Shown here in pieces: positions 344-41,397 of a DNA stretch of 64,000 nucleotides. The number at the start of each line of letters is the position of its first letter. Position 1 is the stretch's first letter. The stretch lies in contig OZ025783.1 of assembly GCA_964019425.1 (NCBI GenBank), positions 496,001-560,000 of the forward strand, in the 5' to 3' direction. The notes beneath the pieces are model-generated. The model was not told the origin of the DNA, ran no database searches, and saw only the letters and a program-made list of their open reading frames with translations. The translations under genes and the position numbers were made by a program. The stretch comes from Flectonema sp. DT1601 (taxonomy: Eukaryota).

Positions 344-3300
344 AGGTTGAATTTCCAGGTGAGATTTGGACTGTTAGCTTTTGGCTAAGGCCCTCCCTGA
401 AGAGCAAGAACAAAAAAACTACTCACACCTGAAGAAAACATACACAAAGAACACACTGTAAGCTGTGTGTGTATTTTGTGTTTGTCACAACAGGAGAGAA
501 AAGAAAGAATGTCAAGGTTGGTCACCTTGCCTATCAACGCACAACATTGGTGGTCTCTACTAGACCCTGAGTGATCCCACTGGATCTCTCATCGTTCATA
601 GTACCCTGTGTGAGAGTTGAGTTTACCAGGTGAGATTTGGACTGTTAGCTTTTGGCTAAGGCCCTCCCTGAAGAGCAAGAACAAAAAAACTACTCACACC
701 TGAAGAAAACATACACAAAGAACACACTGTAAGCTGTGTGTGTATTTTGTGTTTGTCACAACAGGAGAGAAAAGAAAGAATGTCAAGGTTGGTCACCTTG
801 CCTATCAACGCACAACATTGGTGGTCTCTACTAGACCCTGAGTGATCCCACTGGATCTCTCATCGTTCATAGTACCCTGTGTGAAGTTATAAAATCAAAG
901 GTAAACTATGAACTACAAATGACTTAGCCTGTTATTATAATGCCACAGGCAGGCCCTGCATTCAGCAACTATCCAGCAGTGCTTGGATGTCCTGATCTTC
1001 TTCTAAAAAAAAGAAAGAAAAACAAAACTGTAGCTGGGATCACTCAGGATCAACAGACTACCAATGCTACCTGTTGTACTTGCTCACTATGGGGGGTGAT
1101 GCCAAACACCCAGAAGTACTAAACTACTTTCCTTCTTGCTGCCCAGGAGTTTCTGACCAGAACTAATAGAAAATAAAAAGTAGATGGGAAACAATAAAAA
1201 GTAAAATGGATATAACTGAAGTTAAACAAGACAAATGAAGTAACAGACCAGAACAGAAAGAGAATTGTAATAGAAGATTACAAATAAGAAAATGCAAGTA
1301 TCAACACATAATCAAGATACACCAGCAGCTAACAAACAACATAAAATTGAAGATCAGTTGCCAGAGTATTTCAACCATGGTAGAATACTCGCCCCTCTGG
1401 CAGGGATTATCCCAGACTTGTCCTTTAATTTAGTTGGACACCATGGCTTACAACCCTTCCAGAGGGAAGCACCATTATGACTTCTATTTTTTTTCTTCAA
1501 GAAAATCATAAGGTGGGAACAAAGAAAAATGCTAAGAGGAACCCCTTATTAACACCTAAGACATCTAAACTGCAGCCCAGCTTATGCCCAATGCACTAAC
1601 AGGTCATTCCCTCACACTCAGATCAAAAAAATCAAAGTTCAGAGTGCATCTTAGCATGAATGAGAGAATTTCCTCCCGCTTTTTTTGAACAAAAGGGATA
1701 GGAGAAGGGATAGAAAACGAACATAACAATAAGATTCTAAGTGAGAAACACTTAGCAAAAATACTTAGCAGCTTTTAAGGAGCTGAAAAGCAAAAAAAAA
1801 AATCTAAGTGAGAAACACTTAGTAGAAACACTTTGTAGCTAATTGAGCTGAAAATAAAAAAATAAAAAAAATTTCTAAGTGAGAGATACTTAGCAACTTT
1901 TAGAACAAATATTTCAGTAAATAACCTGTTGAAATGGTAGTTAATGTAACCATTACAGGTTTGATGCCAATACTGACAAAGACTGAGTTGAGCCCACTGA
2001 GTGATCCCACTGGATCTCTCATCGTTCATAGTACCCTGTGTGAGAGTTGAGTTTACCAGGTGAGATTTGGACTGTTAGCTTTTGGCTAAGGCCCTCCCTG
2101 AAGAGCAAGAACAAAAAAACTACTCACACCTGAAGAAAACATACACAAAGAACACACTGTAAGCTGTGTGTGTATTTTGTGTTTGTCACAACAGGAGAGA
2201 AAAGAAAGAATGTCAAGGTTGGTCACCTTGCCTATCAACGCACAACATTGGTGGTCTCTACTAGACCCTGAGTGATCCCACTGGATCTCTCATCGTTCAT
2301 AGTACCCTGTGTGAAGTTATAAAATCAAAGGTAAACTATGAACTACAAATGACTTAGCCTGTTATTATAATGCCACAGGCAGGCCCTGCATTCAGCAACT
2401 ATCCAGCAGTGCTTGAATGTCCTGATCTTCTTCTAAAAAAAAGAAAGAAAAACAAAACTGTAGCTGGGATCACTCAGGATCAACAGACTACCAATGCTAC
2501 CTGTTGTACTTGCTCACTATGGGGGGTGATGCCAAACACCCAGAAGTACTAAACTGCTTTCCTTCTTGCTGCCCAGGGGTTTCTGACCAGAACTAATAGA
2601 AAATAAAAACAGATGGGAAACAATAAAAAGTAAAATGAATATAACTGAAGTTAAACAAGAATGTTGGTCCTAGACAAGACCTTAAACTGACTAACCGGTC
2701 TTAATTTTAACTAAGTGTTAACCTAGTTTCCTAGTTTCTAATATGAAATCTTTTTCTTTTTTTTTCTTTTTGAACAAAATGTAATTATTAGTGTAAAAAA
2801 ATGAAGAAACAGACCAGAACAGATAGAGAATAAAAAAGAAAAGATAATTGCAAGAGTTATTGTAGTAAAAGATTACAAATAAAAAAAAATGCAAGTATCA
2901 ACACATGATCGAGATACACCAGCAGCTAACAAACAACATAAAATTGAAGATCAGTTGCCAGAGTATTTCAACCATGGTAGAATACTCGCCCCTCTGGCAG
3001 GGATTATCCCAGACTTGTCCTTTAATTTAGTTGGACACCATGGCTTACAACCCTTCCAGAGGGAAGCACCATTATGACTTCTATTTTTTTTCTTCAAGAA
3101 AATCATAAGGTGGGAACAAAGAAAAATGCTAAGAGGAACCCCCTATTAACACCTAAGACATCTAAACTGCAGCCCAGCCTATGCCCAATGCACTAACAGG
3201 TCATTCCCTCACACTCAGATCAAAAAATCAAAGTTCAGAGTGCATCTTAGCGTGAATGAGAGAATTTCCTCCCGCTTATTTTGAACAAAAGGGATAGGAG

Positions 3301-3652
3301 AAGGGATAGAAAACGAACATAAAAATAAAATTCTAAGTGAGAAACACTTAGCAGAAACACTTAGCAGCTTTTAAGGAGCTGAAAAGCAAAAAAAAAAACT
3401 AAGTGAGAAACACTTAGTAGAAACAATTTGTAGCTAATTAAGCTGAAAATAAAAAAATAAAAAATTTCTAAGTGAGAAATACTTAGCAACTTTTAGAACA
3501 AATATTTCAGTAAATAACCTGTAATGATTAAACCATTACAAGTTTGATGCCAAAACTGACAAAGACTGAGTTGAATTTCCAGGTGAGATTTGGACTGTTA
3601 GCTTTTGGCTAAGGCCCTCCCTGAAGAGCAAGAACAAAAAAACTACTCACAC
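344..3652 (-). repeat. Family A tandem array (~1.4-1.5 kb units with a ~270-bp terminally repeated segment), left part
   Basis: The segment gagttga..ccaggtgagatttggactg...catagtaccctgtgt recurs at 344, 614, 2044 and 3568 (the last cut at 3652). Unit bodies are near-identical. Strand is inferred from the terminal stem-loop. Confidence 0.9.
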
Positions 3653-4253
3653 TTTTTTTGATAAAGTGGGAAGTAACGGACTGGGAGCTTTTGGCTCCTG
3701 CCCTATTCCCGATGTAAACTTTCTTTTTTATTTTTTATTTTTTTTAACAGGCCCAAAGGGCGACAATGATGGTTGCTGACCAAGGAATAATATTCAAATG
3801 AATTTTCGTTTCAAAGAAACGAACAGAATTAAGAGAGAGGCAGAGAAAAAAAAGAAAAAAAAGAAAGAAAAGAAAAAAGAAAAAAAATATGAAGAGGAAA
3901 TAATCAAACATGAAAAAAAAAAAAAAAAATATATATAAATAAAAAAACGTTGTATGAAAAAGGAAAAAAAAAAAAAAATAAAGACCAGAAAAGGAAAGAG
4001 AAAATGAAAAGGTATAATATTATTGTGGGGATATGAGGGATAGCAGGGAGATGCTCTTTTTTTTTTTTTTTTTTATTTTTTTTTTTTTTTTATTTATTAT
4101 TTAAAAAAAAAGGAAACAATCAGTTTAGCGTCTCGATCAGGACGGAAAATAGAAATTAATCGACATAGTCGATCGATAGAAAAAAAAACAATGATAACAT
4201 TGTTTATTCTTTTTTTTTTTTTTTTTTTTTTTTAAACCCTTTTAATTATTTTA

Positions 4254-5985
4254 GGAAAATTCTCCGTTGCTACCCCAAAACTTTATTTTTCTCCGTTGTA
4301 GTCCACCTAAAAGAATTTTTCTCCGTTGTGTTTTTTTTTCTTTTTTTTTTTCGCTGTTGTGTGCCACCTAAACTTTTTTTTCGCTGTTGTGTGCCACCTA
4401 TATTTTTTTTTCGCTATTGTGTGCCACCTGTACTTTTTTTTCGCTGTTGTGTGTCACCTGACCTTTTCCCCTTTTTTTTTTTTTTTTTTTTTTTTTTCTC
4501 GTTTTTTTTTTTTTTTTTTCGGAAGATTTTTTTTTTTTTTTGTGCACCTGTCGACCTGGTTAGTTAGATACACTCATCTGATGGATTGATTGAAAGCTAA
4601 TAACACAAACGGTTAAGGATGTGATGGCTTGGGAAATGATAAAAGTAATCTTCTCTCTGGAACTTCTGCTCAGTACATGCAAATGCATCTTGACACGCGG
4701 GAACCCTTCGGGCAGTACTGCGCTCTTGATAATTCAAAGTAGCCTTAAAAAAGCTCTCATGCTTGCATGAGTTAGATACCCTGATAACCCGGTCAGAAAC
4801 AGGAGTGTCGCTTGCGACCAGGCTGTCTGTAACTCGCAGGTGTCTTGACTTTGAAATTCGGTTGGAATGACGTGTAAGAGGACAACAGTTCTCTGTAAGG
4901 TGACCCAGCCCTGCACACATACCGTTCTTTGCATACACTCAGTAAAACTTCCAGAGGCTGAGAACACTATCAGGACCTGACGAACAACCCAACCTATCCG
5001 TGAGTATTTGTCTTTGCTAATCTCGTCAAGCCGGATGAACATCATACAAACGTTATCTCAACATCCGTGTGCGGGTGTTATCTTCCTCATCTCGGTTTAG
5101 CCCTGCACCATCTGCGGAACTGGTAGCCTACGATGCTTCAGTAAAACGTTCAGGTTCCTAACCACAAACGTTTTTCTCTCTAGGCTTTTACTCTTTTACT
5201 ACGGACTCTCGCTTAAAGAGATTAAGAAAATCTCCAAGTGCGTAGCTGACTATGTGCACATATGAAAAAAGTTGGAGGAATTGCTAGTTTGTTGGGTTAT
5301 ATTCGTAGCAGCTTCACGGTGACGGCGGCCTTACCGAGAATTATCCCTGGTTATTACGTGTTGAAAGTCACAGGTTATAGTGTCAAAATAATACTCGCGT
5401 GGGTAGTTGCTCTCTTCGGAGAGCATAACTTCAGACCCGTCAATTCGCGGCGCTTATATTTACGCACATCAATTAGTTGAACGAGTTCAAGTCACTTCCC
5501 TGCATAGCAGATCCGTGTCCTCTGTACTAACGCTATACTAAGTGTGACTGTGACTGATACACGTAATGGTTGGGTTCTTTAAGTACTCAGGACTGGTTGC
5601 TTGCTAATGTGAATGCTGACGTTCGAATTCTCCGACTTTCAAGTAAATTTAGGTGAATGATCTCTTGTTTTCTGTCTGACGCTTGTGATGCACCTCTTGT
5701 ATTCTAAGTCACAGGTGTATGAGTAATACTTGGTAAGAGGAGCCCCAGGTCCAACAAGAGGAGCCACATGTTTTGTGCATTTTGGTGCCAGGTGGTCATA
5801 ACCCATTTTTTTTTTTTTTTTCCCCGAGAAAAAAAAAAAGTGCTGGTACCCAACAGCGAAAAAAAAAAAAGAGTTGTTCACAACAGCGAAAAAACTTTTT
5901 GGGTGCAGGCAACGGAGAAAAAAAAGTTAAGGTGACAGGCAACGGAGAAAAAACTTTTTTTTATGTAGGCAACGGAGAATTCTCC
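4254..5985. mobile_element. MULE/Mutator-like non-autonomous DNA transposon with subterminal tandem repeats
   Basis: TIRs gga(a/g)aattctccgttgc. 9-bp TSD attatttta (4245-4253 and 5986-5994). Subterminal ~30-bp repeats ttttcgctgttgtgtgccacc. Internal ORFs are broken. Confidence 0.8.
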
Positions 5986-6326
5986 ATTATTTTAAAGAAA
6001 AAACTTCCGTTTAGCGTCTTGACCAGGACAGAAAATAGAAAGTAATCGACATAGTCGATCGATAAAAAAAAAAAACAATGATAACATTGTTTATTCTTTT
6101 TTTTTTTTTTTTTTTTTTTAACTTTTTATTAATTTCTTAAAGAAAAAACAATCAGTTTAGCGTCCTGACCAGGACGGAAAATAGAAAGTAATCGACATAG
6201 TCGATCGATAAAAAAAACAATGATAACATTGTTTATTCTTTTTTTTTATTTTAAAAAATATAAATAAAAAAACAATGATAACATTGTTTATTCTTTTTTT
6301 TTATTTTAGAAAACGAATTAGAACAA

Positions 6327-7529
6327 ATGAAAGAACGAATTTTTTATGTTCTATTTTTATTTTACTTTAATGCGATGTCAGCCTCCCTCGAGAAAGACAA
6401 GCAGTTACTAAACGGATTACCTGTTGAGATCAAAGCTACCAACCAGGATCCATCCTCACTTCCTCCTGCGCCCCCTGTTTTAATTATTGAAAAAGATAGA
6501 AAAGAATATGAACTTCTGGAAGGAGTAATTCAACGGTTAACAGTAGAACGCGATGAATCGAAGACTTCTCTTTCCGCACTAGTTCGTCAATATGACTTAG
6601 TGGAAGATTACAGGAAACGTGAGCTCGCAAATCTGACTCAGAAAGCAGACCTATCGGAAATGGCGCTTTTCAATTACCATCAAAGGTTTGTTCTTCTGTC
6701 GAACGAATTGGAGACCAAATGTAATGAGGAAAGAGAAAGTAAAATAAGACTTTTCTATACTCAACAGGAGGTCGAGAGTTTGCGTGCCGCACGTCCCCAC
6801 ATGACCCACTTTAGTCAACAAGTTTCCCCCCGATCCCCTATTTTGTATGAATCTGTTGCTATGATGAAGATAGCAAAGAGCTACCTCTCGCTCTTTACAA
6901 CTACGAGTAGTCTTTTTACTCCTCTTATTAAACCCCTTATCCCTACCCTTAATTATATCACCCCTCTTTGTCCTCTAGCCTCAATTCCTCCGACAATGCC
7001 GCAGAGTGAAGCTCTCGACCGCACGCCGACCAAGATTTTACGACAAGAGAGTCACGTTATCTCCGTTAAAGAGAATACACCTATTGCGAGACAATGGTCC
7101 GAGGGTAGGATTGACTTACTCGAGAACTACTGTCGAGCAGTAGATGACTCTCTCGAAACAAACGAGAAAGCGGCAGAGCTCTCAGAACAACTTTTGGATG
7201 CCCAACTTCGCCTATCGGAGCTGAATCACCAACGGTGTACAACTCACGCAGAGCAGCTTGAGCAATCCATGATGTTAACGGGACTGGCGAGCGATTTAAA
7301 TGTTCAACTCGCCTTGGCACGGTCTCAAATTGCGGCCCTGAAGTTCCAATTAGCTTCATGGGCAGAAGGTTTGAGTCCGCCAGACACAGAAGAACATGAG
7401 GAAATTGAAACTCCGCCGAGAAAGTCTGAGCGTTCAACTCTGAAAAAACGGACCCCTCCATCAAGATATCGTTATAATCGAAGGAGATGTTCTGCTGATG
7501 ACGTTCACGGTGACTCCACCCCCTTGTAA
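6327..7529 (+). CDS. Uncharacterised predicted coiled-coil protein (start may be ATG ~6375, MSASLEK)
   Basis: Uninterrupted 400-codon ORF in decayed AT-rich surroundings. It has two E/L/Q/R-rich heptad-like regions, a Pro/Thr linker and a basic C-terminal tail. Confidence 0.6.
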   Translation: MKERIFYVLFLFYFNAMSASLEKDKQLLNGLPVEIKATNQDPSSLPPAPPVLIIEKDRKEYELLEGVIQRLTVERDESKTSLSALVRQYDLVEDYRKRELANLTQKADLSEMALFNYHQRFVLLSNELETKCNEERESKIRLFYTQQEVESLRAARPHMTHFSQQVSPRSPILYESVAMMKIAKSYLSLFTTTSSLFTPLIKPLIPTLNYITPLCPLASIPPTMPQSEALDRTPTKILRQESHVISVKENTPIARQWSEGRIDLLENYCRAVDDSLETNEKAAELSEQLLDAQLRLSELNHQRCTTHAEQLEQSMMLTGLASDLNVQLALARSQIAALKFQLASWAEGLSPPDTEEHEEIETPPRKSERSTLKKRTPPSRYRYNRRRCSADDVHGDSTPL

Positions 7530-8017
7530 TTCTCTTTTTCCTTACTTTCACATCACTTTGTTTATTTAGTTTATTAGCTTATTTATTATTTATTGTTCGT
7601 TTTGTTTGTAATATTTTGTCGATATGTTTATGTCCGTCAGATCATAACGTTAATCAGGTTAATTGTTAATTGTTAATTATAAATGGTCTAAACCCCAATC
7701 CAAGTTCCCAAGGCTTGGCATAGATTTGAGTGACGCCTTACTGGCCTCCTCATCCTCTATGAGTGGTGAGGGGGCCAGCAATGGTTTTTTTCTTTTTTTC
7801 TCTTATCTCTTTTTTTTCTTTTTCTTTTACTCTAATATGAAATATTTTTGAACAAAATGTGATTATTAATTTAAAAAAAAAAAAAAAAAATAATGTAAAT
7901 GAATAATAAAAAAAAAAAAAAAAAACATGCCTTGGGAATACAACCAAAGCCCCAATTAATCGGTCCTTTCTTTTTTCCTTCTTGTCAAGTGATCGCTCCA
8001 CTCGTCGATCACCAAAA

Positions 8018-8440
8018 CCGATTGTATTTATATCTGTTCTTTTCTCAACGATCGGCTATACCGATCATTTTTTTTTAAAATAATTGTTTTCTTCTTCTCG
8101 ACGATCAGATCCAATTGATCGACCTTTTTTTTTTTTTTTTTTTTTTTTCCTTTATTCTTTCCATCCCTCCCGCTCCCCTTATTTTAATAAAAACAAGATC
8201 AGCTCAGCTTGATCGTTAATCTTTTTTTTTTTTTTTTTTTAAATTTAAACTGATTGTATTTATATCTGGTTATTTTTTCTCAACGATCGGCTATGCCGAT
8301 CGACCTTTAAAATAATTGTCTTCTTCTTCTCGACGATCAGATCCAATTGATCGACCTTTTCTTTTTTTTTCCTTTATTCCTCCCATCCCTCCCGCTCCCC
8401 TTATTTTAATAAAAACAAGATCAGCTCAGCTTGATCGTTA
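8018..8440 (+). repeat. Two tandem ~200-bp units of the S inner region
   Basis: gattgtatttatatctg...gatcagatccaattgatcgacc...gatcagctcagcttgatcgtta occurs twice. A reverse copy lies at ~13720-14010. Confidence 0.8.
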
Positions 8441-9628
8441 TTTTTTTTTTTTTTTTTGTTGGTCCTAGTCAAGACCTTAAACTGACTAATCGGTCTTAAC
8501 TTTAACTAAGTGAATGAACCCTTCCCGTTTTCCTTTTCCCTTTATTACTCTCTATCTGGTCTGTTATGTCATAAATCTCATTTAATTTTATCATTCATTT
8601 TAATTTTCACTGTTTCCCATCTACATTTTATTTTCAAATAGTTCCGGTCTGTCTTTAATGTTAAATAAAACTGATCATGTTAACTCAATTTTTTTTTATG
8701 TGCAAGAGATACCAACACGCAAGAGATACCAACGCACATACGAGATACCAGCACTTCCGAGATACCGACACACAAGAGATACCAAGACACTTAAGATACC
8801 AGCAAGGACAATGAGAGGTAGAATGAACTCTCCTCCTTGTGTCCGATCCTGATTATTTTTTGTTGAATTGGTAGTGTTACCTCAGTTTGCGACTCTCGTA
8901 TCTGTGTTGTGTTAACTCATGTAAGTGATCTTAACTCCTGTTAAAAAATAAATAAAAAGAATTTAAAATAAAAAAAAAAAAAAAGAATAAACAATGTTAT
9001 CATTGTTTTTTTTATCGTTCGACTTTGTCGACTAATTTCTATTTTCAGTTTTTTTCTTTAAAAAATAAATAAAAAGAACTTAAAATAAAAAAAAGAATAA
9101 ACAATGTTATCATTGTTTTCTTATCGATCGACTATGTCGATTACTTTCTATTTTCCGTCCTGGTCAAGACGCTAAACTGATTGTTTTTTTTTTTTTTTTT
9201 CAAAATTAATAAAAAAGAATAAAAAAAAAAAAAAAATAAAAAAAAGAATAAACAATGTTATCATTGTTTTTTTTTCATCGTTCGACTTTGTCGACTAATT
9301 TCTATTTTCCGTTTTTTTTTTCTTTAAAAAATAAATAAAAAGAATTTAAAATAAAAAAAAAGAATAAACAATGTTATCATTGTTTTTTTATCGATCGACT
9401 ATGTCGATCACTTTCTATTTTCCGTCCTGGTCAAGACGATAAACTGATTGTTTTTTTTTTATAAATAAAAAGAAATAAAAAAAAAAAAAAAGAATAAACA
9501 ATGTTATCATTGTTTTTTTATCGTACGATTTTTTCCTTTTTCATACAACGTTTTTTATTTATATTTTATTTTTTTTTTTTTATTTTTTTCATGTTTGATT
9601 ATTTCCTCTTCATATTTTTTTTTTTTTT

Positions 9629-9660
<32 letters not shown>

Positions 9661-9849
9661 CTCTGCCTCTCTCTTAATTCTGTTCGTTTCTTTGAAACGA
9701 AAATTCATTTGAATATTATTCCTTGGTCAGCAACAGTCATTGTCGCCCTCTGGGCCTGTTAAAAAAAAAAAAATAAAAAGAAAGTTTACATCGGGAATAG
9801 GGCAGGAGCCAAAAGCTCCCAGTCCGTTACTTCCCACTCTATCGAATTC

Positions 9850-16898: not shown

Positions 16899-17324
16899 CT
16901 GTAAAGGGAAATATTCTTGTGGGGAAAAACCCGCGAGTTTTTTTTATTTTTTCTAAATCCGCGAGAATTTTTCCCCGCGAGAGTATTTCCCTGCCAGCAT
17001 ACATTTTTATACAGCCATTTTTTTAGTTCCTTTTTGTGAAGAAAATACATGTGTTACAAAGGAAAGTTACAGCAAAAATTATTTTCATTATGCAGCATGG
17101 TTGTTTTAGATGTGTTTGCTGGAAAATAATTCTTTTTTCCAGCTTGCACTTGATGATTCCTCACATTCTTGCACACTTTTGCAAAAGTCCTCTGTGGCAG
17201 GGAAATATTCTTGTGGGGAAAAACCCGCGAGTTTGAAAAAAAATCCCCAAATCCGCGAGAATATTTCCCCACGGGAATATTTCCCCGCAGGAATATTTCC
17301 CCGCGAGAATATTCCCCTTTACAG
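16899..17324. mobile_element. Tc1/mariner-superfamily MITE (426 bp)
   Basis: TIRs ctgtaaaggg(a/g)aatattct. TA duplicated on both sides of satellite site caaaatTAataaaa. Internal repeats (g/a)aatatt(t)cccc. Confidence 0.9.
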
Positions 17325-24422: not shown

Positions 24423-24681
24423 TTGATTATTTCCTCTTCATATTTTTTTTTCTATTCTTTCTTTTTTTTTTTTTTTTTTTTTTTTCTCTGCCTCTCTCTC
24501 AATTCTGTTCGTTTCTTTGAAACGAAAATTCATTTGAATATTATTCCTTGGTCAGCAACCATCATTGTCGCCCTTTGGGCCTGTTAAAAAAAAAAAAAAA
24601 AAAATAAAAAGAAAGTTTACATCGGGAATAGGGCAGGAGCCAAAAGCTCCCAGTCCGTTACTTCCCACTTTATCGAAATTC
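24423..24681 (+). mobile_element. Truncated family S insertion (~260 bp)
   Basis: Replaces ~20 bp of a satellite monomer (aaacaatgttat|...gaaattc|cgactatgtcg). Confidence 0.8.
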
Positions 24682-27340: not shown

Positions 27341-29053
27341 TCACTCGAAGAACTTACATTGCTGAGGTAAACTAGGAAGGCTGATTCCCCCACCTGGCGC
27401 CTTGGTGCCCCGGGTGTACTCGTCCGCACGTTGAGAAGTGGTATCGACCCAGGTGCATCTCACTCGCAAATCAGCCGCGCCGGCTGTCTCATACAATGTG
27501 CACAACATCTCGTTCCCCATGAAGTTGGAGCTGTGGCCTTTGTTAATAGCAGCCACTGCCGCCGTGTTATCCACGCGCAAATCCAGAACGTGACCCGGCC
27601 GCAGTACCGCAGCCAGTCGAACCGCCTGGAGAGCGGCAAACATTTCCTTCAGGAATATATGATGTCTTGAAGAGGGAAAACAGCCCTGAATCACTTCCTC
27701 CGGAACAATCTCCAGCACCGCCGCCCACTCCAAATCCGAAGCATCCGACCACGCAGTCACTTCGGGGTTGTCAGGGACAGCTGAAACCCAGTCGTTCCGT
27801 CGAAGCACATCCAAAACTCCCGCAAGCTCTCGCAATACTGACGGACAGAGTGGTAACGATTCGTCCCACCCGTCTGGCCTAGCTGCCATCTCTCTCCCAG
27901 CTCTCCTTACGAATGCCAGCGTCGATCGCAAGAAACACAAACGGCGTCCCGTCGTGTACCAAAACCATACCAAGCCACCGAAGACCCGGTAAAATTCCCT
28001 CGCCGTCACGGGGCGTCCCCCCATCATCCGTCCCAACGTCTCTGAGGATAACATCTTCTGGACCCAGTCTGGCGCCGATCGATAACGTTGCGGTGTGGCT
28101 GACAAATCAAATTCCAAACCCAGAGCCACGAAGTTCGACTTCGGTTCACCAAACCCTTCAGCATCACTCAGACGGGCACCAACGTAATCCGCCCTACGTT
28201 TGAATTCCGAGTAACGCTGCGCGGTCTCCTCCTCCGACTCTCCCACTACGAAGAAGTTGTCCACCCACGCCACACCATCTGACTCCGGGAGCAGAACCAT
28301 CGCTGAACGATGCGCAATACACGGAGCCCAGCTCCACCCCATACACAGAGCCCGCAGCTTCGCACGCACGAAAGGACCTCTGGCGCCTCCCAAATTCACT
28401 CCGAAGTAATCGTCAACACCTCGTCCGAGAGGGAACTGGTAAAACCAACTCTTACCGTCGTCCTGAGCCACATAGCGTACAGAAAGGAAACGGGCTATCA
28501 CCGATCGGATCCCAGGCAAAAGCATCGGTGGCGGTGGTCGCATCAGACGATTCAATTTTCTTCCATCACACACGAGTCGTAGCCCTCTCGAACTCTTCGG
28601 TACCGTGAACGCCGGAAGTACGACCTTCTGCTGGCTCGTTCGCTCCACCACACCCCACTTCTCCAAGTGTTCCAAATGCCTCATCATATGCCTCGAAGTA
28701 CCACGGGACGCTGACCTGTCCGCCAACGCCTGCATCGCCTCAGGCAGAAATAAGGCCTCAAAAGCAGTTTCGTCTCGAATTACATCTAAGATTCCAGTCA
28801 AAATTCCTTCCGAGTCCAGCTCCACCAGTCTATCTAAATCTAGTCGGGACTCTGAAATCGGAGCTGAATTCGATAGAGTGGGAAGTAACGGACTGGGAGC
28901 TTTTGGCTCCTGCCCTATTCCCGATGTAAACTTTCTTTTTATTTTTTTTTTTTTAACAGGCCCAGAGGGCGACAATGACTGTTGCTGACCAAGGAATAAT
29001 ATTCAAATGAATTTTCGTTTCAAAGAAACGAACAGAATTAAGAGAGAGGCAGA

Positions 29054-29087
<34 letters not shown>

Positions 29088-29477
29088 AAAAAAAAAAAAA
29101 AAATATGAAGAGGAAATAATCAAACATGAAAAAAATAAAAAAAAATAAAATATAAATAAAAAACGTTGTATGAAAAAGGAAAAAAAAGAAGAAAAAAAAA
29201 AAAGACCAGAAAAGGAAAGAGAAAATGAAAAGGTATAATATTATTGTGGGGATATGAGTCAATCACCCGCCTCCCTGTCAGAAGGAGGGGAGACGTGACG
29301 GCCTCCGACAGCTACGGTCGCCACTCCCGAGTACGTCAGCATCACGTCCGGTGCACCAGACTCCTCCCCCAAACTCCTCGCCCTTGGCGGAGGTGGCGGG
29401 GGATCCGGCACTTTGTACTTCACTTGCGGTTCCAGCAGAGCCCTTGGCTGAGCAGGAAACGCGGGACAAAACGGCAT
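27341..29477 (-). CDS. Reverse transcriptase + RNase H (pol), interrupted by an S insertion at 28866-29258
   Basis: RT motifs LRLVCDGRKLN, QDDGKSWFYQF, LCMGWSWAP, WVDNF. RNase H motifs WSDAS, HIFLKEMFA, VDNTAA, RADEYTRG. The likely ATG at 29477 overlaps the YR stop. The track's N-terminus (MSPSGPVKKK) is S-derived. Confidence 0.9.
28866..29258 (-). mobile_element. Truncated family S terminal unit inserted in pol
   Basis: Matches the S terminal unit (e.g. ~39938-40319) and ends ctctatcgaattc on the minus strand. Confidence 0.9.
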
Positions 29478-30430
29478 TACAACTCGGTTCCCAGCTTCCA
29501 GGATGTCTCGGCTGACTGCCTCGCTACATGTGTCTTCCCGGCCGGAAGGTATCTCGCCAAGGCATCCAACGACGAGTGTCTGGAGAGCTGGCGTATCGAT
29601 TCCAGGCCTACTCCCTCCAGCAGTAAAGTGTGCAGTGCGCCCCTCCTCAGCGAGTGTCCCGACAGGTCCTTCCCCTCTCGTCTCAGAGCCGCCACTACCT
29701 TTCGGTAAGAAGTGTCCAGCAGCAAATCGCCCGGACTCAGTCCCGTCATTGCCGTCTGAAGCGCGTTCCTCCACTTGTCGGCCAGGTACAGTCCCGTAGT
29801 CCGTCCCAAGCGGAAGGGGTCTGACTTCGTTTCCGACCAGTTCACCGCCACGTATTCTCGTTCCAGAGTGATGTCTCCCACCTTCAATCGGATCACATCG
29901 GACACCCTTGCCGCGCCCGCCCAGCATAGTACGATCGCCAACTGTGTGTCCCTGTCTACTTCCTTCCGCACCGCCTCCATCACCTGCTCTCCCACGGCCG
30001 GTACCGCTTGACGTTGTGGACGGAGCGCGCCGGCTCTTTTTAAAGCTCTCACGTAATCGGTCAGCATCTGGCCTTCTACGATGGAAATTCCCGTCCTTCT
30101 CAATGCCGCTTGGGCCCGTCCTACGTATTCCAGCGCCGTTGAGTTCGAAATTGGACCCTCGGTCCGAGACCTCTGTCTCTCCACCCAGTAAATGATCGCC
30201 AGATCCCACGACAACAAGACTCCCGTCGTCGCGTGCCAACTGTTCCGAAACTGAATCAGCCGACGCTGTGCCGCCTCCAGCCCGCGCCACCTCGAGTGTG
30301 ATAGTGCATTTCCCACCATCTGAAGAGCCGACTTCGTCACAGTCATCGCCTTCGGCTTCGTCACCTCCTCCTCCGTCATTCTCGGTCGACCCACGTCTCG
30401 CACCGACAATATTCCCAGTCCCTCTAGCAT
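29477..30430 (-). CDS. Tyrosine recombinase (317 aa from ATG 30430)
   Basis: Catalytic set: AARVSD (R), ETKSDP (K), HSLRRG (HxxR), SRHSS (H), LARYL (Y). The ATG lies 5 nt after the gag stop. Confidence 0.92.
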   Translation of the reverse strand: MLEGLGILSVRDVGRPRMTEEEVTKPKAMTVTKSALQMVGNALSHSRWRGLEAAQRRLIQFRNSWHATTGVLLSWDLAIIYWVERQRSRTEGPISNSTALEYVGRAQAALRRTGISIVEGQMLTDYVRALKRAGALRPQRQAVPAVGEQVMEAVRKEVDRDTQLAIVLCWAGAARVSDVIRLKVGDITLEREYVAVNWSETKSDPFRLGRTTGLYLADKWRNALQTAMTGLSPGDLLLDTSYRKVVAALRREGKDLSGHSLRRGALHTLLLEGVGLESIRQLSRHSSLDALARYLPAGKTHVARQSAETSWKLGTEL

Positions 30431-30435
30431 TGACG

Positions 30436-31650
30436 TCAGTGCCGACTCTTCGTTGCGGGGGGCCTCTGTACCGGTCTTTGCGATGGCTTCTCCGTCTTCC
30501 CTTTTTTCACCCACATCTTCCGCAGAAAAGGTGGTACCGATGGCGCCACAAAGTGCGCATCTTCCATCTCCTGCGCCGCCGTCCAGCCTCCCCCCGTCAC
30601 TCCTTCTCTCAATATCTCCAAACGGGCGATGTTCTCCTTCACCATGTCCCTGATGAGTCGTTCCGCTTCTTCCAGGTTGTCGATGGATGGTAACCTTGCC
30701 ATCACTGTGCCGAGCTCTCGCAATCTGGCGTGTGCTTCGTGCGCTTGGGGACGGGCGTGGGCTCCTGCTTTTGCCTCCACCAGCTCGCGGTAGTGTTCCC
30801 GCTGGTGGACGTGCACTAACGATAAGTGCTCGGCGCTTCCTTCCCACCAGGCGTCCACGTCGATCGACGCCAGACCGCCCATCAGCGGTCCCCTGGTGAT
30901 TTCTTCCAGCTGATGATCGGAACCCACTCCGCCGGTCAGGTGGGCTCCATCGTTTCCCGTCCTTAGGTTCAGCAACTGATCCTGCAACACTCTCTTCTCC
31001 TCCTCGTGGCGTATCTGCCGACGCAGTGAGGCCAGATCCTCCTCTTCGATTCCGGGAGCTTGTGCCTGTGTCGGTGCGGGTAATGGTGATGGTGCTGGTG
31101 CTGGTGCCGGTGCGGTCAGCTTCGCTGTACGTCTCTCCAGCTCTAGCTGGGCTCGTAATCCAGCCAACTCCTTCTCGTGCTTGGCCTCTAACTGGGCTGT
31201 CCTCACTGCCGCCTCCGCTTCGTTCACCATCAGTCCACACTGGGCGCGGGCCGCATCTACCTGCCGTCCGGCTTGGGCCTCCGTCACCGCTACCCCCGCC
31301 TGGGCTCTGGCGTGGTCGACCTCTCTCCCCGCCATCGCCTGGGTCACGGCCACACCCGCCTGTGCCCGTACCGTCTCGATCTCCCTTCCCGCCTGCGCAT
31401 AAGTAACGGCTTGTGAGGCCGCTGAGTTGGTCGCCGCAATCGCGGCGTTTCCTTCTGCGTATAACGCCCGGATTTCTCCGGCGGCTGCTGCTTCTGTCGC
31501 CCTCGTGTGTGCCTCGGCGGTGTGGGCGGCTATCGCGGCCTGGGCCACGAGTACCGTGTTATCCACGGCCGACTGGGGTGCTAGTTGGGGCTGGCCCCTT
31601 CCGGCTCCAGCCGACAATTGCAGCACTGTATTTGGGTTGACTCCTGGCAT
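30436..31650 (-). CDS. Gag-like ORF1 (Ala-rich repeats, coiled coil)
   Basis: First ORF after repeat A1, 404 aa from ATG 31650, with three ~20-aa repeats. Assigned by position only. Confidence 0.75.
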   Translation of the reverse strand: MPGVNPNTVLQLSAGAGRGQPQLAPQSAVDNTVLVAQAAIAAHTAEAHTRATEAAAAGEIRALYAEGNAAIAATNSAASQAVTYAQAGREIETVRAQAGVAVTQAMAGREVDHARAQAGVAVTEAQAGRQVDAARAQCGLMVNEAEAAVRTAQLEAKHEKELAGLRAQLELERRTAKLTAPAPAPAPSPLPAPTQAQAPGIEEEDLASLRRQIRHEEEKRVLQDQLLNLRTGNDGAHLTGGVGSDHQLEEITRGPLMGGLASIDVDAWWEGSAEHLSLVHVHQREHYRELVEAKAGAHARPQAHEAHARLRELGTVMARLPSIDNLEEAERLIRDMVKENIARLEILREGVTGGGWTAAQEMEDAHFVAPSVPPFLRKMWVKKGKTEKPSQRPVQRPPATKSRH

Positions 31651-31765
31651 AGTTGTTTTTTCGTTGAACGCAGACAAAATCCTGTCGCACGGGGAAAATA
31701 AATCATGACCATAAGAAATAATCGGTTTTCAATCTGAATAGTTTCTTCTCCGACTACGTCGGTAC

Positions 31766-34700
31766 AAAAAAAAAAGAATAAACAATGTTATCATTGTTTT
31801 TTTTATCGATCGACTATGTCGATTACTTTCTATTTTCCGTCCTGGTCAAGACGCTAAACTGATTGTTTTTTTTTTTTTCAAAATTAATAAAAAAGAATAC
31901 AAAAAAAAAAAATAAAAAATAGAATAAACAATGTTATCATTGTTTTTTTTTTATCGTTCGACTTTGTCGACTAATTTCTATTTTCCGTTTTTTTCTTTAA
32001 AAATAAATAAAAAGAATTTAAAATAATAAATAAAAAGAATAAACAATGTTATCATTGTTTTTTTTATCGATCGACTATGTCGATTACTTTCTATTTTCCG
32101 TCCTGGTCAAGACGCTAAACTGATTGTTTTTTTTTTCAAAATTAATAAAAAAGAATATAAAAAAAAAAAAATAAAAAATAGAATAAACAATGTTATCATT
32201 GTTTTTTTTTTATCGTTCGACTTTGTCGACTAATTTCTATTTTCCATTTTTTTTTCTTAAAAATAATAAAAAGAATTTAAAATAAAAAAAAAAGAATAAA
32301 CAATGTTATCATTGTTTTTTTTATCGATCGACTATGTCGATCACTTTCTATTTTCCGTCCTGGTCAAGACGCTAAACTGATTGTTTTTTTTTTCAAAATT
32401 AATAAAAAAGAATATAAAAAAAAAAAAATAAAAAATAGAATAAACAATGTTATCATTGTTTTTTTTTATCGTTCGACTTTGTCGACTAATTTCTATTTTC
32501 CGTTTTTTTTCTTTAAAAATAAATAAAAAGAATTTAAAATAAAAAAAAAGAATAAACAATGTTATCATTGTTTTTTTTATCGATCGACTATGTCGATTAC
32601 TTTCTATTTTCCGTCCTGGTCAAGACGCTAAACTGATTGTTTTTTTTTCAAAATTAATAAAAAAGAATAGAAAAAAAAAATAAAAAATAGAATAAACAAT
32701 GTTATCATTGTTTTTTTTTTATCGTTCGACTTTGTCGACTAATTTCTATTTTCCATTTTTTTTTCTTAAAAATAATAAAAAGAATTTAAAATAAAAAAAA
32801 AAGAATAAACAATGTTATCATTGTTTTTTTTATCGATCGACTATGTCGATCACTTTCTATTTTCCGTCCTGGTCAAGACGCTAAACTGATTGTTTTTTTT
32901 TTTTTTTCAAAATTAATAAAAAAGAATATAAAAAAAATACAAAAAAAAGAATAAACAATGTTATCATTGTTTTTTTTTATCGGTCGACTTTGTCGACTAA
33001 TTTCTATTTTCCGTTTTTTTTCTTTAAAAAATAAATAAAAAGAATTTAAAATAAAAAAAAAGAATAAACAATGTTATCATTGTTTTTTTATCGATCGACT
33101 ATGTCAATCACTTTCTATTTTCCGTCCTGGTCAAGACGCTAAACTGATTGTTTTTTTTTTTTTTTTCAAAATCAAAAAAAATGAATAGAAAAAAAAAAAA
33201 ATAAAAAAATAGAATAAACAATGTTATCATTGTTTTTTTTATCGTTCGACTTTGTCGACTAATTTCTATTTTCCATTTTTTTCTTTAAAAAAAAAAAAAG
33301 GGAAAACCTACAGATCCACCCCCAGGTTTGGGGAAACGTACACTACGGTCACGGCCTTGTGTAACTTTTTTGACCCCTATATGCTCGATTCTTTGTTTTT
33401 TCCTTATCGATGGTAGGAATGGTAACCGAATTAGCTTCATGTGTCCAATTTCAAGGACGCGTGACCATTTATTTTTTTTCCGTTGCCGCTCTTCTTACGT
33501 CCCGAACGAATATTAAAAAAAAAAAAAAAAAAAGAATAAACAATGTTATCATTGTTTTTTTTATCGTTCGACTTTGTCGACTAATTTCTATTTTCCGTTT
33601 CTTTTCTTTAAAGAATAAATAAAAAGAATTTAAAATAAAAAAAAAGAATAAACAATGTTATCATTGTTTTTTTTATCGATCGACTATGTCGATCACTTTC
33701 TATTTTCCGTCCTGGTCAAGACGCTAAACTGATTGTTTTTTTTTTCAAAATTAATAAAAAAGAATATAAAAAAATACAAAAAAAGAATAAACAATGTTAT
33801 CATTGTTTTTTTTTTATCGTTCGACTTTGTCGACTAATTTCTATTTTCCGTTTCTTTTCTTTAAAGAATAAATAAAAAGAATTTAAAATAAAAAAAAAGA
33901 ATAAACAATGTTATCATTGTTTTTTTTTATCGATCGACTATGTCGATTACTTTCTATTCTCCGTCCTGGTCAAGACGCTAAACTGATTGTTTTTTTTTTT
34001 TCAAAATTAATAAAAAAGAATATTAAAAAAAATACAAAAAAAAAAGAATAAACAATGTTATCATTGTTTTTTTTTTTATCGTTCGACTTTGTCGACTAAT
34101 TTCTATTTTCCGTTTTTTTTCTTTAAAAAATAAATAAAAAGAATTTAAAATAAAAAAAAAGAATAAACAATGTTATCATTGTTTTTTTTTATCGATCGAC
34201 TATGTCGATTACTTTCTATTCTCCGTCCTGGTCAAGACGCTAAACTGATTGTTTTTTTTTTCAAAATAAAAAAAAAATATTAAAAAAAAAAAATAAAAAA
34301 AAAGAATAAACAATGTTATCATTGTTTTTTTTTATCGTTCGACTTTGTTGACTAATTTCTATTTTCCGTTTTTTTTCTTTAAAAAATAAATAAAAAGAAT
34401 TTAAAAAAAAAAAAAAAAAAAAAGAATAAACAATGTTATCATTGTTTTTTTTATCGATCGACTATGTCGATTACTTTCTATTTTCCGTCCTGGTCAAGAC
34501 GCTAAACTGATTGTTTTTTTTTCAAAATAAAAAAAAAAATATTAAAAAAAAAAAACAAAAAAAAAGAATAAACAATGTTATCATTGTTTTTTTTTTATCG
34601 TTCGACTTTGTTGACTAATTTCTATTTTCCGTTTTTTTTCTTTAAAAAATTAATAAAAAGAATTTAAAAAAAAAAAAAAAAAAAAAGAATAAACAATGTT

Positions 34701-35845: not shown

Positions 35846-37980
35846 CCTCTGCCTCTCTCTTAATTCTGTTCGTTTCTTTGAAACGAAAATTCATTTGAAT
35901 ATTATTCCTTGGTCAGCAACCATCATTGTCGCCCTTTGGGCCTGTTAAAAAAAATAAAAATAAAAAGAAAGTTTACATCGGGAATAGGGCAGGAGCCAAA
36001 AGCTCCCAGTCCGTTACTTCCCACTTTATCGAAATTCAGCAAGCTGAATAAGAAATTTGGGAGAGGAATAGGGGCAGTGAACTTTTGATTCAGGCCCTTC
36101 CCATCGAACAGGACGAAAACTTCTAAAACCTGAGATGAACCAATTGAGTTGAAACAAACAAATAACAGAGACGCAACACATACCGGAACATCATCGCAAG
36201 CAATGCTTCGGACCTCCGTCTTTCTATTTTCCGTCCTGGTCAAGACGCTAAAGTGATTGTTTTTTTTTTCAATATTAATAAAAAAGAATATAAAAAAAAT
36301 AAAAAAAAAAGAATAAACAATGTTATCATTGTTTTTTTTTATCGTTCGACTTTGTTGACTAATTTCTATTTTCCATTTTTTTTTCTTTTTAAAAATAAAT
36401 AAAAGGAATTAAAAAAAAAAAAAAAAGAATAAACAATGTTATCATTGTTTTTTTTATCGATCGACTATGTCGATTACTTTCTATTTCCCGTCCTGGTCAG
36501 GACGCTAAACTGATTGTTTTTTATTAAAAAATAAATAAAAAGAATAAAAAAAAAAAAAAAAGGAATAAACAATGTTATCATTGTTTTTTTTTATCGATCG
36601 ACTATGTCGATTACTTTCTATTTTCCGTCCTGGTCAAGACGATAAACTGATTGTTTTTTCTTTAAAATAATTAAAAGGATTTAAAAAAAAAAAAAAAAAA
36701 GAATATACAATGTTATCATTGTTTTTTTTTCTATCGATCGACTATGTCGATTAATTTCTATTTTCCGTCCTGATCGAGACGCTAAACTGATTGTTTCTTT
36801 TTTTTAAATAACAAATAAGAAAAAAAAGAAGAAAAAAAAAAGAAGAGCAATAAACAGAGCAATAAACAATATTATCATTGTTTTTTTATCGATCGACTAT
36901 GTCGATCACTTTCTATTTTCAGTCCTGGTCAAGACGCTAAACTGATTGTTTTTTTTTTTTCAAAATTAATAGAAAAGAATATAAAAAAAATACAAAAAAA
37001 AGAATAAACAATGTTATCATTGTTTTTTTTTATCGTTCGACTTTGTCGACTAATTTCTATTTTCCGTTTTTTTCTTTAAAATAAATAAAAAGAATTTAAA
37101 ATAAAAAAAAAGAATAAACAATGTTATCATTGTTTTCTTATCGATCGACTATGTCGATCGCTTTCTATTTTCCGTCCTGGTCAAGACGCTAAACTGATTG
37201 TTTTTTTTTCAAAATTAATTTAAAAAAAAAAATATAAAAAAAATAAAAAAAAAGAATAAACAATGTTATCATTGTTTTTTTTTATCGTTCGACTTTGTCG
37301 ACTAATTTCTATTTTCCGTTTTTTTTCTTTAAAATAAATAAAAAGAATTTAAAATAAAAAAAAGAATAAACAATGTTATCATTGTTTTCTTATCGATCGA
37401 CTATGTCGATCGCTTTCTATTTTCCGTCCTGGTCAAGACGCTAAACTGATTGTTTTTTTTTCAAAATTAATTTAAAAAAAAAAAATATAAAAAAAATAAA
37501 AAAAAAGAATAAACAATGTTATCATTGTTTTTTTTTTATCGTTCGACTTTGTCGACTAATTTCTATTTTCCGTTTTTTTTCTTTAAAAATAAATAAAAAG
37601 AATTTAAAAAAAAAAGATTAAACAATGTTATCATTGTTTTTTTATCGATCGACTATGTCGATTACTTTCTATTTTCCGTCCTGGTCAAGATGCTAAACTG
37701 ATTGTTTTTTTTTTTCAAAATTAATAAAAAAGAATATAAAAAAAAAACAAAAAAAAAAAGAATAAACAATGTTATCACTGTTTTTTTTATCGTTCGACTT
37801 TGTCGACTAATTTTTATTTTCCGTTTTTTTTTTCTTTAAAAAATAAATAATAAGAATTTAAAAAAAAAAAAAAAAGAATAAACAATGTTATCATTGTTTT
37901 TTTATCGATCGACTATGTCGATCACTTTCTATTTTCCGTCCTGGTCAAGACGCTAAACTGATTGTTTTTTCTTTAAAATA
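31766..37980 (+). repeat. S satellite array with terminal unit ending at 36037
   Basis: Same monomers. Terminal unit ~35628-36037. Confidence 0.95.
33300..33508. mobile_element. Single terminus of a probable MULE-like DNA transposon
   Basis: Unique block starting gggaaaacctacagatccaccccc in a poly-A tract. No partner TIR seen. Confidence 0.35.
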
Positions 37981-39740
37981 CCGTAATTATAAATATCATG
38001 GTGTATAAAAAGTCTCCAAATCAGCAAAAAATGGCCGAATCCACCATCTTTATTATATCCAAAGTTTTTTTAGTACAATCATTCACAGAAAACACTTAGC
38101 AAAATTCGGATTCCAGAAAAAAAAAACTTTTTTTTTTGACCTTTTTCTTTTGACTTTGGTACTAAATTATCGACATTTTGAACTGGTTAAAGTTCTACAG
38201 GCTAGTCTTGTGTACCAACCTGGTGGGGGATTGATAACTAATGTTGAAGTTGCTTCCAGATACATATCAGGACAACATATCCACAAATAACGTTGTTGGT
38301 AGCTGGTTGCACACCAGTCTTAATGAATGATGTCAAAATTCCTAAAAGCAGCAAGTAGTAGTCTAGACGAGGCCAACTACAACTAAGGAGTTCTTCTCCA
38401 ATCGTTGTAATACACCGAGGTATGAGGTGCGGTATTAAGAAACATGAACTCATGTTCACAACTACAGACTTCAGGAGCTCGGGTGGATTTGCAGGATTGA
38501 CAATACCTGCTTTTATAAAACCAGCCATGATAGTATTTTTCGTAATACTATCAAGGGCTGTCACTATCCACCCAATTTGCGACTTCGTTTTTGTGAGCTC
38601 CTTCATCCATTTTGACATGGGTTCGGATTCAGGAGCTCCCTTTGGACCCTTCCCTTTCGCAGCGCGCTTTAAAGTTTCTATCAGCTTTTTGCTTTGATTT
38701 TTTCAACTTTTCCTCCCGCTTGCGCATCTGCTCTGTCATCCACTCACCAAGAAAGCTTGATGCTTCTTTGAAGTTGGCCATGACAGTTAGATCCAGCGGC
38801 CGGAGATGAGAAGTCCATCCGCCTTGCACCACCATAACCGTGATATTGGCTTCTTCAAATCGACGAAGGACTTCTTCAGTTATCTGCCCCCTAAACTGGG
38901 CATATACTGCGAGGCCAGGGTGATCCGATTGGAGTGTTTTTTAGTTAGTTTAGATCCGATTGGAGCGTTTCTTAATAAAGTATGGGATTATTGCCCAGAA
39001 ACCTTGACCGAGCTGATAGGAGTTCTGCTTCAGGCGCTACTTTCGCAGTGGTTCCAAGACGGTAACCAACCCTTCCGTTCCAGGAACTTGTAGGTCCATG
39101 TTGCTTGTAGGGAACCGGAATCCACGCGTTCCGGCGTATCACCTGTGCTTGAAACCAGAGAAGAGAAGCAAACACAGAGCCACCATAGGCACGGATATTC
39201 TCAATTAAATCGAGCACCCGCTTCCTCATCAGTGGTTAAGATGGTTGGTCTCCCAGATTTCACCTGCCCTTCTATTGGTTCTCCCTTTGTCTTCCTCTTT
39301 TGTTCTTCAACCAAGAGCTTCATTGCCCTGCCTGCACTGTTGATCTCTTCTTATGGTCCGTGTTGAAGTATGCAATCGCCCTTGACACATTGGTGGCAGA
39401 GTTCACCATCTCACCAACGTTAAGCAACTCCCCCCTTGACCACTTCTCATAGCAGCGAGACGTTGGTGCTCTTTTACCCGCTCCTCTTTCTTTATCAAAC
39501 CCAGCTCCACCTTGCTTACCGACGTCTTCAGGGGTTCAAAAGGATCCCGTTTTTTCAAAAAATTCCGCATAGTGTGAAAAATTTCATCCCCAAAAACTAC
39601 TATTTTACAGTCAAAATGTGTACTTTCATACTTTTTTATAAAAATCCACCAAGTTTTTTTTCCGAGAATCCACCATCTTTTTTATATCCAAAGTTGTTAT
39701 ACTCCAAATTTTTTATACACCGTGATATTTATAATTACAG
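37981..39740 (-). mobile_element. pogo/Tigger-like transposon with degenerate transposase
   Basis: ~31-bp TIRs c(c/t)gtaattataaatatca(t/c)ggtgtataaaa and TA TSD. Minus-strand fragments WTSHLRPLDLTVMANFK (DDE_1-type) and WIVTALDSITKNTIMAGFIKAGI. Confidence 0.88.
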
Positions 39741-40440
39741 TAATTAAAAGGATTTAAAAAAAAAAAAAAAAAAAAAAAAATAAACAATGTTATCATTGTT
39801 TTTTTTTCTATCGATCGACTATGTCGATTAATTTCTATTTTCCGTCCCGATCGAGACGCTAAACTGATTGTTTCCTTTTTTTTAAATAATAAATAAAAAA
39901 AAAAAAAAAAAAAAAAAAAAGAGCATCTCCCTGCTATCCTCATATCCCCACAATAATATTATACCTTTTCATTTTCTCTTTCCTTTTCTGGTCTTTTTTT
40001 TTTTTTCTTTTTTTTCCTTTTTCATACAACGTTTTTTATTTATATTTTATTTTTTTTTTATTTTTTTCATGTTTGATTATTTCCTCTTCATATTTTTTTT
40101 TTCTTTTCTTTCTTTTTTTTTTTTTTTCTCTGCCTCTCTCTTAATTCTGTTCGTTTCTTTGAAACGAAAATTCATTTGAATATTATTCCTTGGTCAGCAA
40201 CAGTCATTGTCGCCCTCTGGGCCTGTTAAAAAAAGAAAAAAAATAAAAAGAAAGTTTACATCGGGAATAGGGCAGGAGCCAAAAGCTCCCAGTCCGTTAC
40301 TTCCCACTCTATCGAATTCAGCTCTCCCTGCTATCCTCATATCCCCACAATAATATTATACCTTTTCATTTTCTCTTTCCTTTTCTGGTCTTTTTTTTTT
40401 TCTTTTTTTTCCTTTTTCATACAACGTTTTTTATTTATAT
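39741..40440 (+). repeat. S satellite end, terminal unit (ends 40319) and partial second terminal unit
   Basis: ...ctctatcgaattc at 40319 is followed by a repeat of tctccctgctatcc. Confidence 0.85.
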
Positions 40441-40500
40441 GAGGTGGTGTAGAAACCCCCCCCCCCCCCCCCCAATTGCAGTTTTTGCCTACAGAATAAT

Positions 40501-41397
40501 TTATGATTTTCTTGAAGAAAAAAAATAGAAGTCATAATGGTGCTTCCCTCTGGAAGGGTTGTAAGCCATGGTGTCCAACTAAATTAAAGGACAAGTCTGG
40601 GATAATCCCTGCCAGAGGGGCGAGTATTCTACCATGGTTGAAATACTCTGGCAACTGATCTTCAATTTTATGTTGTTTGTTAGCTGCTGGTGTATCCTGA
40701 TCATGTGTTGATACTTGCATTTTTTTTATTTGTAATCTTCTATTACAATTCTCTTTCTGTTCTGGTCTGTTACTTCATTTGTCTTGTTTAACTTCAGTTA
40801 TATCCATTTTACTTTTTATTGTTTCCCATCTACTTTTTATTTTCTATTAGTTCTGGTCAGAAACTCCTGGGCAGCAAGAAGGAAAGCAGTTTAGTACTTC
40901 TGGGTGTTTGGCATCACCCCCCATAGTGAGCAAGTACAACAGGTAGCATTGGTAGTCTGTTGATCCTGAGTGATCCCAGCTACAGTTTTGTTTTTCTTTC
41001 TTTTTTTTAGAAGAAGATCAGGACATCCTAGCACTGCTGGATAGTTGCTGAATGCAGGGCCTGCCTGTGGCATTATAATAACAGGCTAAGTCATTTGTAG
41101 TTCATAGTTTACCTTTGATTTTATAACTTCACATAGGTACTATGAACGATGAGAGATCCAGTGGGATCACTCAGGGTCTAGTAGAGACCACCAATGTTGT
41201 GCGTTGATAGGCAAGGTGACCAACCTTGACATTCTTTCTTTTCTCTCCTGTTGTGACAAACACAAAATACACACACAGCTTACAGTGTGTTCTTTGTGTA
41301 TGTTTTCTTCAGGTGTGAGTAGTTTTTTTGTTCTTGCTCTTCAGGGAGGGCCTTAGCCAAAAGCTAACAGTCCAAATCTCACCTGGTAACTTAACTC
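40501..41397 (+). mobile_element. Truncated family A copy (~900 bp)
   Basis: Reverse complement of ~614-1511. Ends cacctggtaacttaactc. Confidence 0.9.

Follow-up and report, generated by a model that had tools for sequence, protein, structure and literature searches.

The question raised by a repeat-rich stretch of the Flectonema sp. DT1601 genome (contig OZ025783.1, positions 496,001 to 560,000; these 64,000 nucleotides (nt) are called the window) is why two different repeat families, S and A, end in the same small stem-loop. A previous reading of the letters alone (the sequence-only reading) took both families for non-autonomous elements, and the stem-loop for an RNA or single-stranded DNA (ssDNA) structure recognized in trans by one mobilizing enzyme. 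The analysis described here suggests, with a probability of about 0.72, that this 26-nt stem-loop and the short tail behind it are the 3' recognition signal, of the stringent type, of an R2-group long interspersed nuclear element (LINE), which the LINE would use in cis and A probably in trans. There is good support for the proposed conserved RNA structure that one enzyme reads, and this enzyme can be named as a reverse transcriptase (RT) of a retrotransposon that lacks long terminal repeats (LTRs) and has a restriction-like endonuclease (RLE). The ssDNA option receives no support, and the part of the proposal that fails is the dependence of S.

The hairpin is real, and it is stronger than the sequence-only reading reported. 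The pattern GGGCNNNNGCCAAAAGCNNNCAGTCC has 15 exact matches in the window, which are the eight S copies and seven A copies at the places described before, and has none in 100 dinucleotide-shuffled versions of the window. The S cores located by this pattern are at 3678-3703(−), 9800-9825(+), 22385-22410(+), 22741-22766(+), 24631-24656(+), 28890-28915(−), 35987-36012(+) and 40270-40295(+), and the A cores are at 368-393(−), 639-664(−), 2069-2094(−), 3592-3617(−), 15472-15497(−), 21395-21420(+) and 41348-41373(+). The S and A cores are identical at 21 of 26 positions, and the five differences are one bulge base and two compensatory pairs, as expected from the swap of two inner pairs that had been noticed. 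A scan with the structure only gives 17 matches, which are the 15 S and A cores, one at 36097-36072(−) and one at 61375; the last is unrelated (0.23 expected per shuffle). The hairpin at 36072-36097(−), which reads GGGC-C-TGAAT-CAAAA-GTTCA-CT-GCCC, folds into the shape of S and A and contributes a third compensatory pair. It represents a third family, C, which was missed when the hairpin was assigned to S and A, an assignment that is correct for these two. Family C is found by the structure scan and a covariance model as a single 5'-truncated fragment of 183 nt (36041-36222(−)), and probably marks where a sister LINE, or else some other dependent unit, ends. Its 3' end meets the S end at 36037, such that the two 3' ends stand head to head in a short palindrome at 36037-36041, which suggests that one insertion was primed at the end of a copy already present.

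The predicted fold has the layout 4-1-5-loop-5-2-4 in S, A and C. All 117 of 117 cells are paired over 13 distinct rows, among which the core pairs show three two-sided and two one-sided changes, and the loop is invariant. When the observed differences are placed at random, all pairs and two two-sided changes are kept in 0.1-0.2% of the trials per family pair. A search of the window with the covariance model gives 18 rows, two of which have E values above 3. The other 16 are strong and every one of them lies at a unit end, as had been proposed. The A hairpins at 639, 2069, 3592 and 15472 are internal only because the A units stand head to tail. Two G-U pairs turn into mismatches on the opposite strand, and the preference for one strand that had been ascribed to a G-U pair is confirmed for S and A. 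When the sense strand is folded, the core is dominant in S and C at all lengths folded. The flanks had been described as otherwise dissimilar. This holds for the 150 nt just upstream of the hairpin, which align weakly (the S/A score is reached by 1 of 300 shuffles and the A/C score by 74 of 300), but not for A as a whole, because A has matches of 107 nt and 83 nt to LINE untranslated regions (UTRs). The hairpin has no match in Rfam at E<=1, where the scan gives only a transfer RNA (tRNA) and two weak long non-coding RNA matches. A pattern scan of JGI metagenomes gives six matches, none with a fully paired inner stem or a tail, which are judged to be chance, and a pattern scan of viral contigs gives none.

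The tail behind the core is less constant than was thought. GAAATTC, which had been given as the end of both families, with another ending in some A copies, follows the core in four of the eight S copies and four of the seven A copies (8/15). Of the remaining S copies, three have GAATTC and one has an A7 end, and the three remaining A copies close with GTAAACTC or GTAACTT, followed by AACTC. The tail is better rendered as a degenerate (A)ATTC-A(A/G)CTC that is variably clipped.

Family S is the 3' end of an RLE-type LINE. It constitutes the final 400 nt of a longer element, in which a unique UTR is followed by a satellite array with units of 115-145 nt and then by S. The copy at 6303-9849(+) is a 5'-truncated RLE LINE, as judged from the identity of its open reading frame (ORF) and from contiguity: an ORF on the same strand, open to the 5' junction, is followed in contiguous sequence by a long 3' UTR, satellite units and the S end with its hairpin at 9800-9825. 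The ORF (6303-7526) is 97.8-99.0% identical over 408 amino acids (aa) to the C-termini of the family proteins P0009, P0011, P0013, P0016 and P0017, and the hairpin lies on the coding strand of the LINE. Thus, the view of S as non-autonomous is wrong, because the copy that ends in S encodes the C-terminus of an RT-CCHC-RLE protein. The other S copies are placed variously. The core at 3678-3703 ends a UTR-satellite-S element (14010 to 3653) within an A unit; that at 22385-22410 belongs to a short 3' fragment within another S copy; those at 24631-24656 and 28890-28915 end 5'-truncated S copies, located in satellite and within the RT ORF of a tyrosine-recombinase (YR) retrotransposon, respectively; and that at 35987-36012 is preceded by a long satellite array.

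The family proteins come from a search whose query was the endonuclease region of the broken element located at 42-46 kb, and which gives four clusters of 235, 47, 1 and 14 members, all from ENA only and probably from this assembly or a close strain. At least five members have the 408-aa match to the window ORF among the 45 members listed. P0016 contains, in order, FADD (65), CCHC (401), RPDI...ELTCP (513-529) and the segment represented by the window ORF (781). Pfam detects RVT_1 and zf-RVT, and does not detect an apurinic/apyrimidinic endonuclease (APE) domain, in P0001 and P0016, both of which combine RT, CCHC and PD-(D/E)xK in one ORF, as RLE LINEs do. Two CxxC...H motifs are read by eye at the N-terminus of P0018, for which Pfam gives no score. 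Among solved structures, R2 proteins are the best match (E 3.8e-32). In an RT tree of 27 rows, which contains no named HERO sequence, a clade of 15 rows (98/96) is separate from the named Caenorhabditis, Trichuris and Aphanomyces rows, and the look-alike clusters are chordate and cnidarian for the most part. The LINE likely belongs to the HERO clade, whose motifs its protein resembles.

This protein extends 612 aa beyond the RLE motif, as compared to 50-77 aa in all 12 relatives that could be scored among 17 distant ones. The portion of this tail encoded in the window (6303-7529(+), assigned by identity to the family proteins) looks like a generic coiled coil, and no family is recognized in it. 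Two subfamilies, represented by P0016 and P0030, share 699 of 700 residues across the RT and RLE, and only ~51% of the 292 aligned tail residues that follow. The tail amounts to ~600 aa behind the endonuclease, and the subfamilies differ in its last 400 aa. A divergent tail behind an identical RT and RLE points to an exchange of 3' cassettes.

Every copy is anchored at its 3' end and has a ragged 5' end, and none has an LTR or a terminal inverted repeat. Three targets whose empty site is known show no duplication and have lost 0, 1 and 1 nt. A fourth target, the satellite that carries the core at 24631-24656, has lost ~18 nt, and the ORF-bearing copy has a possible duplication of 15-20 nt, which is ambiguous in poly-T. 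The targets include satellite, a miniature inverted-repeat transposable element, the YR element, A and the LINE ORF itself. In 59 family proteins of other loci, the S end abuts LINE coding sequence in seven and the A end in one, apparently with the same terminus, as judged from the translation. The fixed 3' ends and ragged 5' ends, together with targets that are blunt or slightly deleted, are consistent with target-primed reverse transcription, by which RLE elements insert and which requires a structured 3' UTR RNA. The RT-RLE protein would nick DNA with little site preference and would grip the RNA through the invariant CAAAA loop and the GGGC helix. Synthesis of complementary DNA would then begin in the (A)ATTC-A(A/G)CTC tail, which lies 20-30 nt further downstream, and slippage or microhomology of a few nt would accompany it. 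The same enzyme would copy family A in trans, and template jumps would give rise to the multimers of A.

Family A forms a head-to-tail array (15709 to 344(−)) that is inserted in an S-type UTR, and a whole S-type element was inserted into this array later. The S-to-A join at 3653 was considered as a template jump and rejected, because the empty site shows a nested insertion. The array consists of three units of 1363-1525 nt with an identical 5' start and two sequence variants. This start is the same at three head-to-tail junctions, and the units differ at 4 of 1513 and 27 of 1346 positions. The core at 15472-15497 belongs to a 5'-truncated leading copy, those at 3592-3617 (unit 1, split by the nested element), 2069-2094 (unit 2) and 639-664 (unit 3) end the units, and that at 368-393 marks the 3' end of the array. 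Two solo 5'-truncated copies (21102-21444 and 40501-41397) end with the cores at 21395-21420 and 41348-41373. No A unit has an open frame above 70 aa, and the complete unit at 2053-3566(−) reads as non-coding over its 1514 nt, with its longest frame under 70 aa. Alignment of A to the UTR leading to S gives 107 nt at 79% (segment 8549-8649(+); score 110, shuffle maximum 61 in 40 shuffles), and alignment to an older LINE just past its stop codon gives 83 nt at 78% (segment 45827-45908(+); score 83, shuffle maximum 33 in 40 shuffles). In an R2-type short internally deleted element (SIDE), the LINE 5' end with its ribozyme is joined to the 3' end; the match of A to the older LINE lies solely in the 3' UTR, and the window does not contain a young LINE 5' UTR. 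Searches of A for an RNA polymerase III (Pol III) B-box, a tRNA and Rfam families find nothing, including a hepatitis delta virus (HDV) ribozyme at E<=1, and at 1.4-1.5 kb A does not qualify as a short interspersed nuclear element (SINE). We interpret family A as a long dependent element that has been assembled from LINE 3' UTR pieces. These repeats match 13 sequencing runs with small shares, with no RNA run among the matches listed. In the four of 13 runs examined, contigs of three unrelated runs carry A at ~99% and two runs carry RT contigs at ~98%. Of the contigs with A, two out of three end no more than 1 nt away from the A end, which is a weak hint only. One run has cover of the RT and none of A, an observation that carries no weight as evidence.

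The main rival explanation is that A and C are the 3' UTR ends of autonomous sister LINEs of their own, in which the hairpin is retained by descent and acts in cis only. It is as likely as the best explanation for C, which is represented by its one fragment alone, but is unlikely overall. The subfamily that has a nearly identical RT and RLE and a tail of ~51% identity agrees with it, as does the match of A immediately past the stop codon of the older LINE. However, a constant 5' start at three junctions, the presence of two variants and the lack of a frame above 70 aa speak against it, and the ~1 kb of A ahead of the post-stop segment has no coding similarity to any family protein. It is still less likely that the hairpin serves another RNA job, such as 3' end formation, exonuclease protection or self-cleavage, or that the paired changes result from fold-back copying within an inverted repeat and not from selection, with the RT reading the short tail or nothing specific. 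The two changes between S and A are adjacent and possibly one event, and the distance of the motif from the RNA end, 20-30 nt, is one at which stability elements are found too. However, C alters different pairs and introduces a wobble pair, which fold-back copying would erase, and the bulges and loop are retained next to flanks that have diverged almost to the level of shuffles. The self-cleavage that had been proposed as an option also finds no support, because neither Rfam at E<=1 nor a regular expression for the hammerhead core matches a ribozyme family.

The most improbable explanation attributes the mobility of A to a Penelope-like element, a Helitron or the YR retrotransposon at 27341-31728, with the hairpin as an RNA or ssDNA signal. 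The layout of partial and full units in the A array resembles Penelope pseudo-LTRs, and Helitron-type elements bear hairpins and satellite arrays. But no GIY-YIG or Rep/helicase domain, which had been named as candidates for attachment to the motif, is detected among the 16 window ORFs scanned; the linked protein is RT-CCHC-RLE; no hammerhead is matched; the ends are not TC...CTRR and the targets not A^T; and the YR element has its own repeats, lacks a hairpin of its own and is itself a target of S. For S, all three movers are weakened by the link to the RLE ORF.

Several observations weigh against the preferred reading, in which the hairpin and tail are the recognition signal of the LINE. Three two-sided pairs are likewise obtained in 36 of 500 column shuffles, and, since there are just three independent haplotypes, the covariation amounts to three events and gives no family-wide statistic. 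The outer helix of C is equally stable on either strand, and a rival fold beats the A core at one of five lengths folded (core pair probability 0.08-0.44). GAAATTC is absent from eight of the 16 ends, C included. Only one of the eight S copies extends back to an ORF, and this copy lacks the first 75 nt of S at its satellite-to-S junction. Family A is read as non-coding from the copies in the window. The older LINE copy that resembles A retains no hairpin detectable by the covariance model.

The principle of a shared 3' signal is already known from LINE/SINE pairs and from the SIDEs of R2. According to PMC3747384, the partners of stringent LINE/SINE pairs (eel UnaL2, silkworm SART1 and plant L1/SINE tails) have in common a 3' stem-loop whose stems change in a compensatory way and whose loops are conserved, and slippage is aided by short repeats at the terminus. 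The present system is similar in its common 3' tail, its hairpin with compensatory changes, its conserved loop and its short terminal repeat with putative slippage, but differs from these pairs, as described there, of APE-type LINEs and short SINEs, because the LINE is of the RLE type and A is 1.4-1.5 kb long without a Pol III B-box. In bioRxiv 10.1101/2024.11.11.623112, a single terminal fold is retained by avian and turtle R2 although their UTRs diverge, and a compensatory mutation rescues activity; in PMC3414825, R2 SIDEs retain the 3' structure through compensatory changes and R2 jumps between templates. The protein here is likewise of the RLE type, and the repeat families keep the 3' fold despite divergent UTRs. 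However, R2, as portrayed there, targets 28S ribosomal DNA and carries a 5' HDV ribozyme, whereas the targets are varied here and no ribozyme is found; the avian R2 signal is a pseudoknot-hinge-stem, whereas that found here is a bulged hairpin with a CAAAA loop. According to PMC4640811 and PMC9004415, HERO is an RLE clade with mostly non-specific insertion. The LINE shares with it the RLE endonuclease and the little target specificity, and is set apart from HERO as presented there by a 3' UTR of several kb with a satellite array and by the 612 aa past the RLE motif. Literature searches that covered neither Repbase nor the repeat supplement of PMC10161547 give no description of the motif, of a HERO 3' stem-loop or of such a diplonemid LINE. 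The new parts are the host, the motif and the ~600-aa tail behind the endonuclease with its subfamily-specific last 400 aa.

The host is likely a diplonemid, because the topoisomerase III encoded in the window groups with that of Diplonema papillatum (99/94; 17 rows). The window is eukaryotic DNA, and between 46 and 63 kb one strand carries genes for an SLC6 transporter, topoisomerase III and CFAP74. Protein comparison identifies an older, broken RLE LINE of the same family at 42200-45908(+), which has a Mutator-like element (MULE) insertion (transposase fragment at 43330-44260) and frameshifts and lacks its own 3' end; direct comparison of the ORF at 6327 with its tail detects no similarity. 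Satellite remnants are seen at 41660-41865, and ~220 nt at 41975-42200(+) run into the ORF start of this LINE. This segment is the reverse complement, at 67-73% identity, of the UTR segment beside the satellite, and the LINE 3' UTR may therefore include a copy of the 5' UTR of this LINE in inverted orientation, as suggested by this one copy and nine residues of P0018. A fragment of a young-LINE RT without a hairpin end (49710-50132(−), aligned at 98.6% to P0001) lies in an apparent intron of topoisomerase III. The YR retrotransposon (27100-31770(−)), which we take to be TATE/VIPER-like, has a gag-like ORF, a YR and an RT/RNase H-like ORF. The 300 nt at 25148-25447 are identical to those at 31737-32036 and similar satellite arrays follow both, so that its terminal repeats may include satellite. 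Other insertions in satellite are a 1.7-kb insert at 4245-5995, with inverted T-/A-rich repetitive ends of ~300 nt and no convincing ORF, and nested inserts bounded by inverted repeats at 20064-24003 and 16895-18100; the segment 17480-18100 recurs inverted at ~20480-21100, the site of an A insertion. Two copies of DDE_1 transposase fragments (38632-38940(−) and 1-257) and a tRNA-Arg(ACG) gene (63422-63493(−)) are also present.

Template choice by RLE elements is understood almost only for the site-specific R2, which is under development for gene insertion. One young, high-copy family here offers three natural variants of a minimal 3' signal together with a nameable protein, and the recognition rule of a non-site-specific RLE element becomes directly testable. 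Much of the repeat cluster would be explained as well, because the satellite, S and A would be products of one LINE system that nests in itself. A tentative extension, which we regard as doubtful, is that this LINE lineage consists of a constant RT-endonuclease core and exchangeable 3' cassettes (the 400-aa coiled-coil tail, the multi-kb UTR with its satellite array, and possibly the inverted 5' UTR), and that the portable 26-nt hairpin with its short tail suffices to turn any RNA into a template for this LINE. If this is true, the hairpin would be the first defined template signal of a non-site-specific RLE retrotransposon, and the LINE would be a vehicle for the spread of satellite DNA.

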